Assembly (NCBI GenBank): GCA_019894975.1
Contig: JAGXNO010000023.1
Coordinates: forward strand, 1-56,566
DNA from: Promethearchaeota archaeon
Lineage (GTDB): Archaea > Asgardarchaeota > Lokiarchaeia > Sigyniarchaeales > SOKP01
Direction of reading: 5' to 3'
DNA length: 56,566 nucleotides
Notes under the pieces: generated by a model
Told to the model about the DNA's origin: nothing
What the model saw: the letters and a program-made list of their open reading frames with translations, nothing else
Database searches by the model: none
Part shown: positions 113-38,841 of the stretch, one piece after another
Position numbering within the stretch: position 1 is the first letter of the stretch
How the letters are laid out: the number at the start of each line of letters is the position of its first letter
Position numbers and translations under genes: made by a program

Positions 113-254
113 TATCTAGAAATCTAATTTTTGTCTTTTGGTAGTGTGCTTCGGTGCACTTTAAAAATTTACCTTCTTCTTATTGAATGGATTTGACCAT
201 GTAATTTGGTCGCACTGGTAGGAGTCGCCTTTTATCTTAGATATTATTTTTTTT
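113..254 (+). ncRNA. Candidate structured ncRNA, copy 1 (AUUUUUGUCUUUUGGU motif, cUUCGg hairpin, second two-part hairpin); ends approximate
   Basis: 127-147 is identical to the reverse complement of 35378-35398. Stems: 143-149/154-160, 177-185/216-224, 195-199/207-211. BRE/TATA-like GAAAAGTATATTA at ~78-90; T-tract at ~247-254. Confidence 0.65.
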
Positions 255-345: not shown

Positions 346-2187
346 CTAAAAGGAATATTTTCCTTCTAAAATCTCTTGATAAATTTCTTTAGTAAGAGGA
401 ACATATTCAGAACTATTTGGCAAAAGTAAAAATAGTGGAGCATCAATTTCATTTACATTGAATCCTTCTGCTTTTAGTTTTACTTTCTGAATTTTATGAG
501 TAGCCGTAAAATCAAACTTATCAATAATTCGAATGAACTTAGGGACTGCATAATTTGGCAGATATTTTTGTAAAAACTTCAAAAATTCTTTAAAATCGAC
601 ATCTTCCTCAGTTCTTTTATGGATTGAAACCATTCCCGCACGACCCTCGGTATGGGGGATGAGAACGCCATAAACAGAGCATATATCAATTTGCTCAAAA
701 GTATTAATTACTGATTCAACTTCTTCGGTAGATACGTTTTCACCCTTCCACCTAAATGTGTCACCTAAACGATCAACAAATTGAATATGTCCAAAACCAA
801 TATCTCTTACTAAATCTCCTGTATTTATATACATATCCCCGGGTCTAAGTGCATTACGAAATACTTTTTTTTCCGTTGCTTCCTCATCTTTATACATATA
901 AAAGTTATCAGGATCTTGTATTTGTCCTAGCAATAATCCAACTTCACCTGTTCTTACTTTTTTCATTCGATCTCTCTCATTTCGAAAGGGTTGATCTGTT
1001 TCCATATCATATCTTACAATTGCATAAGGTGTTAGGCACACTCCGCAAGTTTTATCAATATTATGTATATTTGCAAAATTTGGGACAAAATCTTCTGTAG
1101 CACCATAAAACTCTCTAACTTCTTTAATCCCAAACCTTTTTTTGAAATCTATCCACATATCTAGCCTAAGACCGTTTCCAACTATTTTTACAATAGGATT
1201 ATCAGCATCATCTGGTTTAGGTGGTTGATTATATAAATATCTACATATTTCACCCACATAATTAAAACATGTTGCATTGAATTTCCTAGTTTCATCCCAA
1301 AATTTACTAGCACTGAATTTTCTGGCAATTGCCATTGCAGAACCACTGTATAGCGCTGCAGCAAAAGCTACTTTAATTCCATGACTATGAAATAGAGGGG
1401 TTGTAATATAAACTATATCTTCAGTTTCTAAACCCACAACCATGTGTCCCCACCACGTCATCGCGTTTAATATAGAAGAATGTCTTAAAATCGCAGCTTT
1501 AGGCAGTCCTGTAGTTCCTGAGGTAAAGATATACACAAATGGATCTTTCATTAGAATCTCAGAGGTTGTAGGGGGATTACTAATATCAGAACCAGAAAGT
1601 TTTTCTTTTAAATTGATATACTCCTCTGGTGTTTTCATATCACCCTTATCAGTCACAAAAAAGAGGTGTTTTTCTTGTTCTTTAGTAAGTTCTAATTCAG
1701 ACTTGACATCTTGGAAGGCTTGAACAAGTTCTTCCCCAATAATATATACTCTCCCAGGAGTATGGGTCATACTATGAATCAATGGTTGTTGACGTAGATT
1801 AGTATTAATCAATGAGGATATAACCCCCAATTTGCCCATCGCTATAATTATAAACATATAATCTGAACGATTTTCCACAAATATAACTGCTGTATCGCCT
1901 TTCTTGAGAAATTTAAGAAAGAAATTAGAATAACGATTAACCTGTTCATTATATTCTTTATGGGTATATTTTTCATCTTCATATAATAACGCCAAACTAT
2001 CGGGATAATCTCTTGCATGCTCCTCTGTTCTAAGACCGATAGAATACTTTGTTTCAGCCGTATGGGCTGCCATCCAGACCACGCCCTTCATTATCCAAGG
2101 AGTTTTCTCATCCCATGATGGCTGTATCTTAGCCTTATATTCGTCAGCTGATATTACATAAGGATTCTTTTGTTCCTTTTCTTCCAT
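346..2187 (-). CDS. Long-chain acyl-CoA synthetase, FATP/SLC27 (FadD6)-like
   Basis: AMP-binding motif YIFTSGTTGLPK; FATP motif FVDRLGDTFRWKGENVST. Confidence 0.9.
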   Translation of the reverse strand: MEEKEQKNPYVISADEYKAKIQPSWDEKTPWIMKGVVWMAAHTAETKYSIGLRTEEHARDYPDSLALLYEDEKYTHKEYNEQVNRYSNFFLKFLKKGDTAVIFVENRSDYMFIIIAMGKLGVISSLINTNLRQQPLIHSMTHTPGRVYIIGEELVQAFQDVKSELELTKEQEKHLFFVTDKGDMKTPEEYINLKEKLSGSDISNPPTTSEILMKDPFVYIFTSGTTGLPKAAILRHSSILNAMTWWGHMVVGLETEDIVYITTPLFHSHGIKVAFAAALYSGSAMAIARKFSASKFWDETRKFNATCFNYVGEICRYLYNQPPKPDDADNPIVKIVGNGLRLDMWIDFKKRFGIKEVREFYGATEDFVPNFANIHNIDKTCGVCLTPYAIVRYDMETDQPFRNERDRMKKVRTGEVGLLLGQIQDPDNFYMYKDEEATEKKVFRNALRPGDMYINTGDLVRDIGFGHIQFVDRLGDTFRWKGENVSTEEVESVINTFEQIDICSVYGVLIPHTEGRAGMVSIHKRTEEDVDFKEFLKFLQKYLPNYAVPKFIRIIDKFDFTATHKIQKVKLKAEGFNVNEIDAPLFLLLPNSSEYVPLTKEIYQEILEGKYSF

Positions 2188-22435: not shown

Positions 22436-22996
22436 TTAGACATTTACTCCATGATTAGTTAAGATTTGTTTCACCAAGAGGAGAAAAGCTTCCTCTATGT
22501 TTTCTCCTAATTTTGCACTTGTCTCGATGAAATGACTAGCCTTTATTTTTTCAGCTAAGTCTTTTCCTTTTTCAGTAGGAACTACTCTATCATCGGTTAA
22601 ATCAATTTTATTCCCTATTAACACGTACACTCCTTCTTTTCTAATATACTTTTTGAAATCTCTTAACCATCTCGATTTTACGCTATCAAATGTATTGTAG
22701 CGTGTAACGTCATAAACAAGTAAAGCACCTTCACAACCTTGAAAATACATAGATCTAATCACATTATATTTCTCTTGACCCGCTAAATCCCACATTATCA
22801 ATCTGATTTTCGTATTTACTTCTTCTAAATCAACATCTTTTCGAATTATGTTAGCACCTAGTGTAGGTTTATAATCCTCTTGAAAATTTTCCTCACAAAA
22901 TCTGTTTAGAAGGCTTGTTTTACCTACTGCGGCCTCACCTAATATGACTATTTTATAAACAAATTCTCTTAATTCTTTTGCTTCTTCCGTGCTCAT
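22436..22996 (-). CDS. Rab-like small GTPase
   Basis: GEAAVGKT, WDLAGQE, NKID, ETSAK. Confidence 0.93.
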   Translation of the reverse strand: MSTEEAKELREFVYKIVILGEAAVGKTSLLNRFCEENFQEDYKPTLGANIIRKDVDLEEVNTKIRLIMWDLAGQEKYNVIRSMYFQGCEGALLVYDVTRYNTFDSVKSRWLRDFKKYIRKEGVYVLIGNKIDLTDDRVVPTEKGKDLAEKIKASHFIETSAKLGENIEEAFLLLVKQILTNHGVNV

Positions 22997-23195
22997 TATG
23001 CATTTAATATATTATCTTTAGTATATTTAAGACTATCAACAATTTTTGATCTTAAATATTCGCTTGAGTGGATTTATTTATATTAATTTGTAATTTGACT
23101 TTGAAGTATTTAATATTTTCCTCATTTAATTATAACAAGTTATTTAATTAGGATTTAATAACCAAATAGTAATTGAAGTAATGTTATTCGCAAAT

Positions 23196-23759
23196 TTAAT
23201 ACTTTTTTTCCATTTTCAATTTTAGAGTAAAAGTATTATGGTTTGGATCCTCGACATCTTCTTTTTCTCCAAAATGTACTACTCTATATTCTGACGGGAG
23301 TGATTTTTCTAAAGAATACACTAAAAATCCTTTGAATAAATCACATGGTACGCCAATTTCAGTGCAAAAAATGCATTTTTGAACAAATATAACAATGAGA
23401 TTTTGTGTTTTTTCAACAATTTCAACGTTCCAATCGGTAACTATAATTGAGTTTATTTCTGAAACAATTTCTTCAAAATTTTTACCATAAGGAAATAAAT
23501 AAAAAGAAAATTTCTTCCCAATTTCAAAAAGGAGCATAGAAGAATCATATAACAGACAATTTTGAGCAGCAATAATTTTTTTAAAAGAAAATAAATCTAA
23601 ATATTGGTTTTGATCCTCATCTCGTATGTTTTTTAAATGGAGCATTTCGGCTTCTTTTAAAATGGATTTCATTCCATCATAATCAAGTATATCATGATAT
23701 GCCTGAAGAAGTGCAGTAATTACGTTATACCTTACTTCTCCTTTATAATCTCCAATCAT
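23196..23759 (-). CDS. Divergent V4R-like protein
   Basis: CIFC....PCDLFKGFL pattern of V4R/HNOX-like folds. Confidence 0.55.
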   Translation of the reverse strand: MIGDYKGEVRYNVITALLQAYHDILDYDGMKSILKEAEMLHLKNIRDEDQNQYLDLFSFKKIIAAQNCLLYDSSMLLFEIGKKFSFYLFPYGKNFEEIVSEINSIIVTDWNVEIVEKTQNLIVIFVQKCIFCTEIGVPCDLFKGFLVYSLEKSLPSEYRVVHFGEKEDVEDPNHNTFTLKLKMEKKY

Positions 23760-23820
23760 TTGTTCTTAATTTCTATATGTTATATTAAAAAATTAATAAT
23801 ATGTGTAAATTATAGATAGT

Positions 23821-24366
23821 TTAATTTAATTTTAGTTCAATATCAAATTTTTTGAGAGCGTGAACAACTAGTTTTTTGAAAGCTGCTTCAACATTATCAC
23901 CGAGTTTTGCACTAGTCTCAATGTAATCACTTGCATGAATTTGATCTGCTAAAATTTTACCATTTTCTGTAGATACAGCGTCTTTATTCCTTAAATCGCT
24001 CTTTTTTCCAATTATAATATAAATTCCATCTGATCGTGCAAATTTCTTAAAATCTTCGAGCCATTTTGATTGAATTCGATCAAAGGTCGATGAACGAGTT
24101 ATATCAAAGACCAAAAGACAAGCAATGCATCCTTCAAAAAACATCTTTCGGGTTAAATCGTATTTATCCTGCCCGGCAATGTCCCATATTGCTAGTTGAA
24201 TCTCAAATTCCTCAATTTTTAGCTTTTTCATCACAATATTGACACCTAGTGTTGGTTGATAATCATCTTTAAAACTCTCATCAATATAACGATTAATTAA
24301 CGATGTCTTACCAACGGCACCATCACCAAGAAGTGCCAATTTCAAATTAATCTTTTTTTTTACCAT
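23821..24366 (-). CDS. Rab-like small GTPase with atypical G4 (KKSD)
   Basis: GDGAVGKT, WDIAGQ, ETSAK; G4 reads GKKSD instead of GNKxD. Confidence 0.9.
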   Translation of the reverse strand: MVKKKINLKLALLGDGAVGKTSLINRYIDESFKDDYQPTLGVNIVMKKLKIEEFEIQLAIWDIAGQDKYDLTRKMFFEGCIACLLVFDITRSSTFDRIQSKWLEDFKKFARSDGIYIIIGKKSDLRNKDAVSTENGKILADQIHASDYIETSAKLGDNVEAAFKKLVVHALKKFDIELKLN

Positions 24367-24383
24367 TTTATATTAACTCATTA

Positions 24384-24812
24384 TTAAATATCCAAAAGAG
24401 TTAAGCCAAATTGAGAGTCTTCAGCTCTGTTTAGCTTTTTATCAATTTCAAAAATATAAACTTCACCTGTTATTGAGACTATGCTTGGTTGGAACAAATG
24501 TCCCCCCAATATCGTATAGTCCTTTGTGCCCATAGAGGCATGGAGGTGAACTATTGGTTCCCCATCTTTAAATGATATATTTCCCATACATGAAACTAGT
24601 TCAACGAAGCTATTATATTCTTTTCTCAAATATTCTTTAGATTCGAAGTCAAAATACCCTAAAGTGAATTTTTTCAAAGCTCCAATACAATTTATCAAAC
24701 CTGATTTGATATTATAATCTTTTATCATTTTGATTATAGAATCAATTAAATCTTCATCAGGCTCAACTTTTCCTATTATAACACGTTTAATCTTGGATTC
24801 AATAGACCTCAT
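24384..24812 (-). CDS. PPC/DUF296 domain protein
   Basis: ELVSCMGNIS...HLHASMG...GGHL. Confidence 0.9.
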   Translation of the reverse strand: MRSIESKIKRVIIGKVEPDEDLIDSIIKMIKDYNIKSGLINCIGALKKFTLGYFDFESKEYLRKEYNSFVELVSCMGNISFKDGEPIVHLHASMGTKDYTILGGHLFQPSIVSITGEVYIFEIDKKLNRAEDSQFGLTLLDI

Positions 24813-24876
24813 TATTACTTCTCAAGGTTCTTAATTTAAAACTTATTCTATATGAATTCTCAAACTCTATTTAAAC

Positions 24877-25428
24877 TTACTTATCTATTCCTATATTTAT
24901 TATAACTTGAGAGACTAATTTTCTGAAGGCATCTTCAACATTATCACCATTTTTGGCACTTGTTTAGATAAAATCACTAGCGCGCATTTCATCTGCAAGT
25001 CTCTTTCCGTCCTCTGTTGATACAGCAATAGATTCTTCTAAATCTATTTTATTCCCTATTAGGACGTAAGCTGGCTTTTTTTCAGAATATTTTTGTAAAT
25101 GTTTTAGCCACTTGGTTTCAATGTTTTCAAAGGTTGACTGCCTGGTAGCGTCATAAACAAATAAAGCTCCCATACATCCTTGAAAAAACATCGCTCGAGA
25201 TAGATCATATTTAGCTTGACCTGCAATATCCCATAGAACTAATCTTGCTGATAGGTTTAATTCTTCAACTTTTAGCTTTTTTACAACTAAGTTCACCCCA
25301 AGAGTAGGTTGATAATCCTCTTTAAAGCGATGCTGGATATATTGATTAACGAGAGATGTCTTACCGACTGCTGGATCTCCCAATAATGCTAATTTTAGTA
25401 CTAGTTTCTTCGGGTGATTTTCTGGCAT
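24877..25428 (-). pseudogene. Rab-like GTPase interrupted by an in-frame TAA (24964-24966)
   Basis: The frame continues after the stop as TSAKNGDNVEDAFRKLVSQVIINIGIDK*; TAA sits where the E of ETSAK belongs. Confidence 0.8.
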
Positions 25429-32402: not shown

Positions 32403-34154
32403 TTACTCTTGGAATTTTTCTAGAAGTTCCTCAATTTCTGCCTGAATAACTTCGGGTTTCTTTGCCGTTTTACCCTTTATCGCGAGTTGCCTCTCTATAA
32501 TTGGTCTGTGGAGCGTGTTCATGGCACAGAAAGGGATCTCCCGAACTTTAGTAGGGTCATCAGGATCTATGACTCCGTAATGGACAAGACAGCTACATAC
32601 TCTGTCAAGATCGAAGTTGTAAGCATCTTGGAAATGCATACTTGATATGAGTAAATTACGTGTATGTAGGAAATTTGCGGCAGAGTTAAAGTTTGGGTTC
32701 ATTACCAATCTAGCAAACCCTTGATAAGTTTTGCTGGTTAGGATTTTTCCAGGTTCTTTAATAAAGCGTGCTGCACCTGCGAAGTAGTACGCCTTTATAA
32801 TTTGACGATATCCTAAATCAGTCATGTCATCCACGAACTCTCCGATTTTTGAGAAAATTGGACCAAGATCGTTTAGGTTTATACCCTTTAGCAGCCCTGT
32901 AGGCTTAGGAACTTCACGCTCTTGAACCATATCCCATACTTTGTTCGACCATTTGATTAATCCAGTGACATCGAAGTAATCCTCGAGGGCTTCCCACTCT
33001 CCCTTGTCGTTGATTATTATTATTGAGCAAAAGCCGCAGTCCTGATGACTTGTCATGCTAAACGCGGGCATTTCGTCAAACCAAGCAAGTAATTGAGTCA
33101 TTTTGGCTGTAGTTGCGATAGGATAAAATTGACCGATTGCTCCATTCGTATGTTTATTTATTGCTTCTTTAAGATCAGAAGTGGTATATCTAATATCCAT
33201 TAATTCTTCGAAGCTGATACGACCTGTTAATGATACAGGCTGGAATATAACACCAGAAACAACATCAGAATTATCCCTAGCATAATCTAAAATATTTCCG
33301 ACTTGATTATCATTTATCCCTTTAGCGATAACTGGGACTAACACAATTCCAAAAAATCTAGCTTTTCGGGCGTTTTCTATAACTCTCTTTTTAAGAGGCC
33401 AAAGGTTCACACCTCGTATTTTTTTCCAGACCTCAGGAGCATCAGTTGCATCAAATTGTAAATAAATCGCATTCATTCCTGCTTCCTGGCATTTTTTAAG
33501 GAATTCGGGTTCTTTACCAAATCTAACACCATTAGTCGTTACCATTAATTCAGTAAATCCTAGTTCCTTTCCTTTTCGAATGATATCGGGGAGATCATCT
33601 CTAACAGTAGGTTCTCCGCCTGATAATTGGAGTAATACAGCAGGAACAGGCTTCATTGATCGAAAATGTTCCATTATTTGTACAATTTGATCAAATGAAG
33701 GTTCTACTATATATCCTTTAGCACTTGCGTTGGCAAAACAAATAGGACATGTAAGATTGCATCGATTAGTAATGTCTATTAAGCAAATATTTGGGGCGCT
33801 TTTGTGATTGGAACAAAGTCCACAATCATAAGGACACCCTTTATTAACTTCTTTAATTCCCGATGAGACAGATTCTGGTTTTGTAGTTGTATTTACAGTA
33901 GATCCTATGCTTGTTGTGAATCCTTGTTGCCATTTGTAATCTTCGGGATTAATTGATAACTTATCTTTAAATTCTCCATGATCTTTACAATTCTTTACCA
34001 TCATAACCCAGTTTGTTTCTGGATCAACTACGATATCAGCGGGAATGTGCTTCATACACTCAGGGCAGAGAGAAGTTGTCTTCCTAATTATCTCACCGTA
34101 TTGTTTCTTTTCCTTTTTATTAGTTTGAGTCTCAAGCTCAGTCATAAACATCAA
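32403..34154 (-). CDS. tes: Tetraether lipid synthase (Tes / GDGT-MAS, MJ0619-like) radical SAM enzyme
   Basis: SLCPEC..C..HG N-terminal metal site, CPYDCGLC..H, CNLTCPICFA, C-terminal MHFQDAYNFDLDRVCSCLVHY...IPFCAMN. Confidence 0.85.
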   Translation of the reverse strand: MMFMTELETQTNKKEKKQYGEIIRKTTSLCPECMKHIPADIVVDPETNWVMMVKNCKDHGEFKDKLSINPEDYKWQQGFTTSIGSTVNTTTKPESVSSGIKEVNKGCPYDCGLCSNHKSAPNICLIDITNRCNLTCPICFANASAKGYIVEPSFDQIVQIMEHFRSMKPVPAVLLQLSGGEPTVRDDLPDIIRKGKELGFTELMVTTNGVRFGKEPEFLKKCQEAGMNAIYLQFDATDAPEVWKKIRGVNLWPLKKRVIENARKARFFGIVLVPVIAKGINDNQVGNILDYARDNSDVVSGVIFQPVSLTGRISFEELMDIRYTTSDLKEAINKHTNGAIGQFYPIATTAKMTQLLAWFDEMPAFSMTSHQDCGFCSIIIINDKGEWEALEDYFDVTGLIKWSNKVWDMVQEREVPKPTGLLKGINLNDLGPIFSKIGEFVDDMTDLGYRQIIKAYYFAGAARFIKEPGKILTSKTYQGFARLVMNPNFNSAANFLHTRNLLISSMHFQDAYNFDLDRVCSCLVHYGVIDPDDPTKVREIPFCAMNTLHRPIIERQLAIKGKTAKKPEVIQAEIEELLEKFQE

Positions 34155-35257: not shown

Positions 35258-35420
35258 TAAAAAATCTCTTAAGAGAATCTCCGAAAACGAAGAAGGTAGA
35301 GCCCCCTGCCAACGGACGCAATATTAGCGTCAAAAAATACAATAGGGGGAGGAGGGCGAAATCAGAGTGTAAAATTTACACTACCAAAAGACAAAAATCC
35401 AGGGTGTAGGCAGGAGGCAT
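35258..35420 (-). ncRNA. Candidate structured ncRNA, copy 2 (homolog of 113-254); ends approximate
   Basis: Same 21-nt motif and same order of stems, with compensatory changes; locally GC-rich; T-tract follows on the minus strand (~35259-35264). Confidence 0.65.
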
Positions 35421-35663: not shown

Positions 35664-36062
35664 ATGATGAGTGACAATAAAGAACAGACGGTAGGAAGAC
35701 CAGAACCAGAATTTAAATTTACAATTTTCACGGTAATATGGATTATAATAGGTTTTATTGCCTCCTGGATAAATATGTTAGTTATTTTAGATACGATGCA
35801 AATTTGGTCATATTTAAGCGTAATATTTACAACTATCATTCCTGGAGTTATCATTGGATTAAAAGATAGATATTGGGGATATGGGTATATGGGGGGTTTT
35901 GCGATTGCGGGTATTCCTTTTTCCTTCTTCAAAGATTCTCATGGTTATCTATTTGTTGGCTGGTATACATTCGCAACAGCCCTTTTTATATTTATTATCA
36001 TCATGCTTATTTTTTGGACAGCATGGAGATCGATTTCTGCAATTAAACGAGTAGAAGATTGA
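35664..36062 (+). CDS. Small membrane protein (~4 TM)
   Basis: Hydrophobic segments. Confidence 0.75.
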   Translation: MMSDNKEQTVGRPEPEFKFTIFTVIWIIIGFIASWINMLVILDTMQIWSYLSVIFTTIIPGVIIGLKDRYWGYGYMGGFAIAGIPFSFFKDSHGYLFVGWYTFATALFIFIIIMLIFWTAWRSISAIKRVED

Positions 36063-37479: not shown

Positions 37480-38841
37480 TTAGGATGAATCATTATCATC
37501 TTTCTTAAGCTTCTCAACTTCAGATTCAAATTTATCCACAATATCTTTAGCATCTTTTTTTATTTCAATCTGATGTTCAACTATTTCCTTTTGTTCATCA
37601 ATATCTTTTGCTCTTTTCTCAATAGTGCTTAGTATTTTTTCAGCAGTGCCATTGATATCAGGATGCAACTCCCTCAAATGAGCTGTAGTATCTTTTTTAC
37701 GATCAATCATAAAAGCTTTTTCTTCTATAGATTTTTCTATTTTTTCTGCTGTCCCCTGTATGTCCGCGTGTAGTTCTACTCGTTTAGCGAGACTTTCTTT
37801 TTGTCGATCCATCATAAATGCCTTTTCTCCAATTGTTTTACTTATAGCTTCAGCTTTTTCATCAAGATTAGGATGAACATCTAAATGTTTATCTTTTTCT
37901 CGGGTAATTAAAAAGGCTTTCTCTGAAACAACATCTTTTATAGCTTCCGCTGCTTTATCCATGTCAGGATGAAGACTTATACGCTGTTCATCTAGTTCTT
38001 TTTGTTTTTCCATCCTAAATGCCTTCTCAGATACAGCCCCCTCTATTGCTCCTGCTACCTTATCTCTGTCAGGATGAAGACTGAAGCGTTGTTTTTCTAA
38101 TTCTTTTTGCTTTTCCACCCTAAATGATTTCTCAGACACAGCACTCTCAATAGCTTCTACTGCTTTACCCATATCAGGATGAAGAGAGGTACGCTGTTCA
38201 TCTAATTCTCTTTGTTTTTCCATTCGAAAAACTTTCTCAGACACTGTTCCTTTTATAGCTTCAGCAGCCTTATCCATTTCAGGATGAAGACCAGTACGCT
38301 GTTTGTCTAATTCCCTCTGTTTTTCCATCCGGAAAGCTTTCTCAGAAACTTTGCCCTCTATTGCCTCTGCAGCCTTGTCCATTTCGGGATGGAGAGCGAT
38401 ACGTTGCTCATCTAATTCTCTTTGTTTTGCCATCCTAAAAGCTTTCTCAGACACTGTTCCTTGTATAGCTTCAGCAGCCTTATCCATTTCAGGATGGAGA
38501 GCGATACGTTGTTCGTCTAATTCTCTTTGTTTTTCCATCCTAAAAGCTTTCTCAGACACAGTACCCTCTATTGCCTCTGCCGCTTTATCCATTTCAGGAT
38601 GTAATTCTTTCAATTGGGCTGTAGTTTCTTTATGACGATCAATTCTGAAGGCTTTTTCTTCAATTATATCCGAAATTAATTTCGTACTTTCTTCAAAAGC
38701 TCTTTTTCTTTCATCCTCAGTAATTCTTAGGTAAGATTCTCTATCTTCCTTTTCTTTCTTATAGAGATCATCTACCATTTTTTTATCTGCTTCAATTTCT
38801 TCCTTAGTTGGAGGTTTTTCATTCTCAGCCAATATTCTCAC
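37480..38841 (-). CDS. Charged helical protein with about ten 35-aa tandem repeats
   Basis: Repeat unit LHPEMDKAAEAIEGTVSEKAFRMEKQRELDEQRIA. Confidence 0.85.
   Translation of the reverse strand: MRILAENEKPPTKEEIEADKKMVDDLYKKEKEDRESYLRITEDERKRAFEESTKLISDIIEEKAFRIDRHKETTAQLKELHPEMDKAAEAIEGTVSEKAFRMEKQRELDEQRIALHPEMDKAAEAIQGTVSEKAFRMAKQRELDEQRIALHPEMDKAAEAIEGKVSEKAFRMEKQRELDKQRTGLHPEMDKAAEAIKGTVSEKVFRMEKQRELDEQRTSLHPDMGKAVEAIESAVSEKSFRVEKQKELEKQRFSLHPDRDKVAGAIEGAVSEKAFRMEKQKELDEQRISLHPDMDKAAEAIKDVVSEKAFLITREKDKHLDVHPNLDEKAEAISKTIGEKAFMMDRQKESLAKRVELHADIQGTAEKIEKSIEEKAFMIDRKKDTTAHLRELHPDINGTAEKILSTIEKRAKDIDEQKEIVEHQIEIKKDAKDIVDKFESEVEKLKKDDNDSS
37600..38604 (-). repeat. Coding tandem repeat, 105-bp period, ~10 copies degrading towards the C-terminus
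   Basis: Periodic LHP..D..AEAI...SEKAF motif. Confidence 0.9.

Follow-up and report, generated by a model that had tools for sequence, protein, structure and literature searches.

The stretch of DNA analysed here (the window, 56,566 nt of a Promethearchaeota contig) carries near its start a motif that resembles the Sm site of eukaryotic snRNAs, and raises the question of whether this motif belongs to an RNA and, if so, what would bind it there. The bare motif is of little help: as the sequence-only reading of the locus had cautioned, it is common in an AT-rich genome, and RAU4+G matches 7060 times in this one (3.9 Mb, 32% GC), so that the weight rests solely on conservation and position.

A family of structured RNA genes

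The motif is the core of a real, conserved family of structured RNA genes of ~120 nt, with homologs in two taxonomic families of Lokiarchaeia, that of the genome studied here (the first family) and a second one. Within the window the 16-mer core is matched twice with at most two mismatches, at 127-142 (+; copy A) and 35383-35398 (-; copy B), against 0.21 matches expected, and the identity between both copies covers 21 nt (127-147 and 35398-35378), the last five of which open the 5' side of hairpin P2. Contig C125 has one more copy; beyond these three, the covariance model finds none in the genome. In intact copies, ~120 nt long, the 5' arm of the 10-bp helix P1 is followed by the core, P2, the pyrimidine-rich linker 2 and hairpin P3; the other arm of P1 then closes the fold, and a pyrimidine tail comes last. 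A pairing of copy B that looks like an additional, switch-like one is this ordinary P1 of the family. The fold is a closed three- or four-way junction, the second family having an extra hairpin. Copy B is the intact gene of the window, and its features and neighbours are as follows:

35301..35420 (-), intact RNA gene, copy B, ~120 nt (covariance model, fold z -5.2, RNA-library contigs)
35418-35409/35310-35301 (-), helix P1 of copy B (covariance model)
35383..35404 (-), full core of copy B with the family-specific CCCUGG (copy comparison)
35382-35366 (-), hairpin P2 of copy B (covariance model)
35365-35332 (-), linker 2 of copy B (covariance model)
35331-35315 (-), hairpin P3 of copy B (covariance model)
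32403..34154 (-), radical SAM gene with HMPTM zinc ribbon (Tes-like), the usual downstream neighbour of class-B copies
35664..36062 (+), unnamed 132-aa gene, the conserved divergent neighbour of class-B copies

Covariation supports the helices. Among 59 copies, double changes were seen in 21 of the 22 pairs, in 140 cells (shuffles, 41.6; slid controls, 40-63), counts that come from related sequences and are not usable as a p-value. All seven pairs of P2 covary, and this hairpin starts ~10 nt after the first U tract and 1-2 nt after the GG that follows the second, adjoining the core in both families; the earlier proposal that the motif lies inside an RNA and abuts a stem-loop is thus borne out. 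The helices and linker 2 vary freely, and in the second family the linker-2 region is itself a hairpin.

The copies form paralog classes that sit at stable but differing loci. One class lies between the 132-aa gene and the Tes-like radical SAM gene, which in the window is parted from the copy B RNA by a gene on the opposite strand; in the second family, synteny with THUMP and pfkA extends across three genera. Since the downstream gene differs in identity and direction among copies, an independent RNA is favoured over a leader. A leader peptide or small ORF was likewise rejected: the distance from AUG to core falls in different frames, many copies have no AUG and the core never varies. One paralog class (L016, L129, L138 and L173) carries, ~35 nt upstream of P1, a hairpin with another U tract that resembles the core.

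No Rfam match was obtained on the element at gathering or E-value thresholds, ARAGORN found no tRNA in the window, and we found no description of the family in the literature on Asgard small RNAs; it is uncatalogued. 5S rRNA, SRP RNA, RNase P RNA and tRNA are discarded as identities, separate normal genes for them existing (for 5S, only in closed genomes). As side observations, genome G000 has a selenocysteine tRNA by ARAGORN, only 16 tRNA genes and no rRNA found in the assembly, and its RNase P RNA (C86:41383-41706) carries near the 3' end an A-U5-GG that two relatives lack.

The element is present in two sediment metatranscriptomes. In one of them, five contigs of 63-114 nt all fall within 35305-35405 and leave the flanks uncovered; three have no base changes and two end in adapter sequence. 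Run X2 reaches a depth of 124 on the element and of 2-4 on tes, a difference that is no expression level, since these contigs are unstranded and pool relatives and so are uninformative on strand, ends and level.

Elsewhere in the window, a 453-aa gene of 105-nt tandem repeats (37480-38841) has a weak match to the hAT dimerisation domain, and three related genes 1.0-1.4 kb apart (22436-25428) appear small-GTPase-like, judging from a P-loop read from the repeat.

The copy at the start of the window is truncated

The copy that had first drawn attention is a genuine member of the family, but it is a 5'-truncated relic that retains the core, the intact gene being copy B at 35418-35301 (-). Its parts are:

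127..142 (+), invariant core of truncated copy A, with U tracts 128-132 and 136-139 (pattern search, copy comparison)
143..160 (+), hairpin P2 of copy A, 7 bp (143-149/154-160), two G-U pairs, C(UUCG)G loop (sequence; family covariation)
161..194 (+), linker 2 of copy A, pyrimidine-rich and paralog-specific
195..211 (+), hairpin P3 of copy A
215..233 (+), orphan 3' arm of P1 (215-226) and pyrimidine tail (comparison with the intact relative L214)
346..2187 (-), acyl-CoA synthetase gene, convergent with copy A

Copy A begins at the first U tract, without the P1 5' arm and the CCCUGG of intact copies. Neither upstream of copy A nor elsewhere in the assembly is there a 5' partner for arm 215-226; in L214, the closest relative of copy A, the 5' arm is present. 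The fold of copy A is no better than that of shuffles (z -1.6), as against -5.2 for copy B. Its 126 upstream nt show no homology to a paralog promoter above that of shuffles, and the acyl-CoA synthetase homologs in 12 relatives have no RNA copy alongside. Three other copies (L093, L454 and L208) also break within a few bases of the core; the contig starts 126 nt upstream of copy A, and its truncation may be a misassembly. A reading of copy A as an attL/attR remnant is unsupported: the copies that were checked have no integrase nearby, and the neighbours that are truncated fall into other paralog classes than the intact ones.

The U-rich strand is probably the one transcribed

We think it quite likely that the RNA is read on the U-rich strand. 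In fixed columns, G-U pairs outnumber A-C by 86 to 38. The count of GNRA loops is 20 versus 5, and the UUCG hairpin of copy A, with its two G-U pairs, points the same way, as does a TATA box that all eight copies of one Promethearchaeum class carry at a constant spacing, ~30 nt ahead of P1. A symmetric count is weak (G-U 159 versus 129), runs of U come after P1 whichever strand is read, and in the first family a TATA box at fixed distance was looked for and none was found.

Two U tracts are the only part that survives across families

Since the first sets of copies had been selected by the core, copies were re-collected by linker 2 alone. In this collection the exact 21-nt core is present in 72 of 79 copies, six have one to three changes and one is truncated; the idea that the motif is the invariant part of the RNA therefore holds, the core being the sole deeply invariant part. 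The first family has A-U5-GUC-U4-GG and the second A-U4-GUC-U5-GG, of equal 15-nt length and in the same place 5' of P2, while the CCCUGG of the first-family core is absent from the second. A-U4/5-GUC-U4/5-GG directly 5' of P2 is the only part that survives across families; the comparison thus reduces the deeply conserved element to two U tracts with an intervening GUC, both tracts being kept in the two families, which is the conservation check that had been proposed. This core is not enriched in UTRs.

The core had also been described as a mostly unpaired stretch, which stands for the U4 runs (unpaired probability 0.8-1.0, and unpaired in the averages of both families) but not for the whole of it: ViennaRNA pairs the flanking GGAU and GUCU in a 4-bp hairpin of -1.2 kcal/mol, and the 21 identical nt enter P2. 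The predicted hairpin, which never covaries and takes different halves in the two families, may conceal part of the core.

Distribution, and copies on viruses and mobile elements

The core is matched in 32 of the 36 genomes of the genus, with almost no control matches, and occurs on more than 120 GTDB contigs, nearly all from Promethearchaeota (Lokiarchaeia). By covariance model, 120 of the 126 genomes of the first family have the RNA, in 1-18 copies each. In the second family, which includes Ca. Harpocratesius, Promethearchaeum syntrophicum and Ca. Lokiarchaeum ossiferum, diverged homologs with the pattern occur in 13 of 14 genomes, and the cultured species have full copies, four in P. syntrophicum and three in L. 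ossiferum. Pattern and model matches in other Asgard classes lie in coding regions or are chance, in searches of low sensitivity; since model R2 misses first-family copies too, the family is "not found" rather than "absent" outside these two. NCBI labels such as Hodarchaeota are unreliable here, the L108 contig being identical in sequence to a contig (166,701 bp) of the same-genus genome G002. Two motif-bearing contigs labelled Saccharibacteria and Patescibacteria (L071 and L093) are probably misbinned Loki or Loki-virus DNA.

A viral contig of 224,826 bp (IMGVR_UViG_3300029288_000001; L414:14-150) carries a full RNA copy after short genes that include an HNH endonuclease; other viral pattern matches are mostly chance, and this is the sole real copy. 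Shortened copies, with a short stem, the core and a brief linker, lie just upstream of a gene in L046 (4560-4720) and L212 (9960-10100), within look-alike Cdc6/RadA clusters; that of L212 also has RPA, and in L046 a reverse transcriptase follows ~2 kb downstream. The full viral copy and the shortened ones on these elements suggest mimicry. Near-exact cores without helices are found 3-7 nt after the stop codon of a HAD-like gene in four Promethearchaeum genomes (L385, L394, L399 and L382). In L211 (2394-4171; G003:C7), two bare cores with a common 14-nt extension are direct repeats 1.76 kb apart that flank a 529-aa gene. Genome G077 (L451-L456) has 18 copies, with tandem pairs 288 nt apart; identical copies surround a single 404-aa gene, and copies also lie where a repeated 894-aa gene block ends.

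What reads the core

The core is very probably a protein docking site, the best reading of an invariant, largely unpaired stretch of mixed bases without a robust pairing partner. That it might instead be an antisense guide pairing with a conserved cellular RNA is highly improbable. The first-family core does pair with 16S rRNA near 713-733 at -24.5 kcal/mol, beating 98-100% of shuffles; the duplex, however, depends on some six G-U pairs, and in 151 copies none of these U positions is a C. The rRNA used for scoring came from the other family, and that family's core does not pair at this site; the target was one of 16 comparisons. No pairing of the core with 16S, 23S, tRNA, RNase P RNA, SRP RNA or mRNA holds up.

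The leading candidate for the docking protein is an SmAP ring, a plausible reading that we hold tentatively. Archaeal SmAPs bind U-rich single-stranded RNA (PMC3710371, PMC12817955), and, as had been pointed out, archaea encode such rings: in this genome three canonical SmAPs bearing the Sm1 and Sm2 motifs are accompanied by a longer, fourth Sm-like protein. The likeness of the core to the U7 Sm site also speaks for this reading. Most genomes of the order give three strong LSM matches, most other Asgards two; in a tree of weak resolution the order has two long-branched, fast-evolving SmAP1-type paralogs (L356-L359, L462-L530); the third SmAP is possibly an independent step towards a mixed ring. 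We propose that the family would consist of trans-acting small RNAs whose core is read base by base, not by pairing, by an Sm-like ring, probably mixed from the order's three canonical paralogs, which would account for the invariance of the non-U bases. The ring would protect the RNA and leave the variable pyrimidine linker free for purine-rich targets, a role analogous to that of Sm for U7 or of Hfq for sibling sRNAs. A more ambitious version, a snRNP-like particle with a sequence-specific Sm-type site and a mixed ring of duplicated SmAPs, guided to targets, mimicked by Asgard viruses and perhaps acting with aCPSF1 as U7 does with CPSF73, we regard as improbable.

The likeness to an Sm site is partial. 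A-U5-G or A-U4-G is present in nearly all 226 full copies, next to a hairpin, but strict PuAU4-6GPu fails: a U follows in both families, a U precedes in the second, and tract 2 has no A. The Sm sites of snRNAs are not enclosed by a closing stem. Here the covarying P1 encloses the core, so that a ring would be unable to thread on in the way it does in snRNPs. Further points against an SmAP ring are that families f3 and f4 have three SmAPs and no RNA detected in incomplete genomes, that a target for linker 2 was looked for and none found, the second family folding this region into a hairpin, and that the weak hairpin may hide part of the core.

The strongest named rival, though an unlikely one, is that the core is a site for aCPSF1 (FttA), a KH-domain nuclease that ends transcription at U tracts. 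The RNA would then be a terminator mimic, its downstream P2 blocking cleavage and the RNA titrating the factor, and viruses and mobile elements would carry copies to loosen termination. What the enzyme requires is a stretch of 18 nt or more with two U4 tracts, and this applies to its Loki ortholog as well (PMC8716108). The core, with two U4-5 tracts and no more, is a candidate site; aCPSF1 is encoded in all 11 genomes tested, and copies do occur on the 225-kb viral contig and in Cdc6/RPA/RadA elements. The bare cores after stop codons fit either SmAP or aCPSF1. Recognition of U tracts leaves the invariant GUC, GG and CUGG unexplained, however, and aCPSF1 is universal in archaea, as the RNA is not. 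A fully invariant core of mixed bases suggests a dedicated reader, which might be another RNA-binding protein (KH, RRM or an exosome cofactor) or, the strand being unproven and the RNA contigs unstranded, an A-tract reader bound to the A-rich strand. We consider this rather unlikely: no candidate gene is linked to the copies, and the U-rich strand is favoured by its G-U pairs, by the GNRA loops and by the TATA box.

Very unlikely, in our view, is an element acting at the DNA level, be it a recombination or attachment core, a MITE, an origin box or an operator. The few copies that break at the core (at 127 in the window, and in L093, L454 and L208) and the direct repeats around the 1.76-kb cassette would fit such an element; three covarying helices with G-U pairs, stable synteny (THUMP-pfkA included) and cover in RNA libraries speak against it, as do the want of a tyrosine integrase near the copies checked and of dyad symmetry. 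A secondary use of the core as a recombination site is possible.

Comparison with known RNA classes

The Sm-class snRNAs U1, U2, U4 and U5 have a PuAU4-6GPu site flanked by stem-loops (PMC3710371). The family shares with them a small structured RNA, an invariant A-U tract-G by a hairpin and a multi-gene organisation; unlike them, it lacks the flanking purines, has two tandem tracts and a site enclosed by P1, and shows no splice-site pairing, no U6 partner and no Rfam match. It does not belong to that class, having neither the purine flanks nor an open site nor an Rfam match. The snRNP-origin relevance that the sequence-only reading had drawn from the motif is unsupported, homologs being found, in low-sensitivity searches, only in two Lokiarchaeia families.

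U7 snRNA, whose non-canonical Sm site is AAUUUGUCUAG, shares UUUGUCU with the core (PMC12360213), and likewise has a hairpin directly 3' of the site and a pyrimidine-rich free segment. The RNA described here is twice as long and folded in a closed junction, no target was found for it and there is no evidence of the Lsm10/11 type; a guide-segment search against mRNA in one genome gave only scattered matches of 12-13 nt, and the 7-nt likeness may be chance.

By analogy, the family may function in the manner of small RNAs bound by Sm or Hfq. Its copies resemble SmAP- and Hfq-bound trans-acting sRNAs and SmAP2 3'UTR motifs (PMC5587771, PMC12817955) in being intergenic and multi-copy with a U-rich site, class B having in addition an anti-SD-like tract as in such sRNAs; they differ in the invariant internal site, which is not loosely U-rich, in the terminal stem and in a far stronger structural conservation. 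With aCPSF1-dependent terminators (PMC8716108) they share two U4 tracts within 18 nt, but their core lies near the RNA 5' end inside a junction and has invariant non-U bases. Y RNAs combine a stem closed by the 5' and 3' ends, a pyrimidine-rich loop, paralogs and viral copies. The family is like them in all these traits and in size; a Y RNA was rejected on the lack of a Ro60/TROVE gene in the genome (95% complete) and of an Rfam match.

Significance

Whether archaeal Sm proteins serve as stable, eukaryote-like RNP scaffolds or as loose, Hfq-like chaperones is an open question (PMC3710371), and no dedicated Sm-site RNA in archaea was described in the literature searched. New here are the test of the core independent of the core itself, the shifted core in cultured species, the third SmAP, aCPSF1 as a rival, the viral copy and the finding that copy A is truncated. 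The family is a real, uncatalogued one that comes with a testable candidate Sm hypothesis, and with copies in both cultured Lokiarchaeia the choice between scaffold and chaperone becomes directly testable. Should aCPSF1 or some other protein prove to be the partner, this is still a near-universal, virus-borrowed and so far unlisted RNA of an Asgard lineage.
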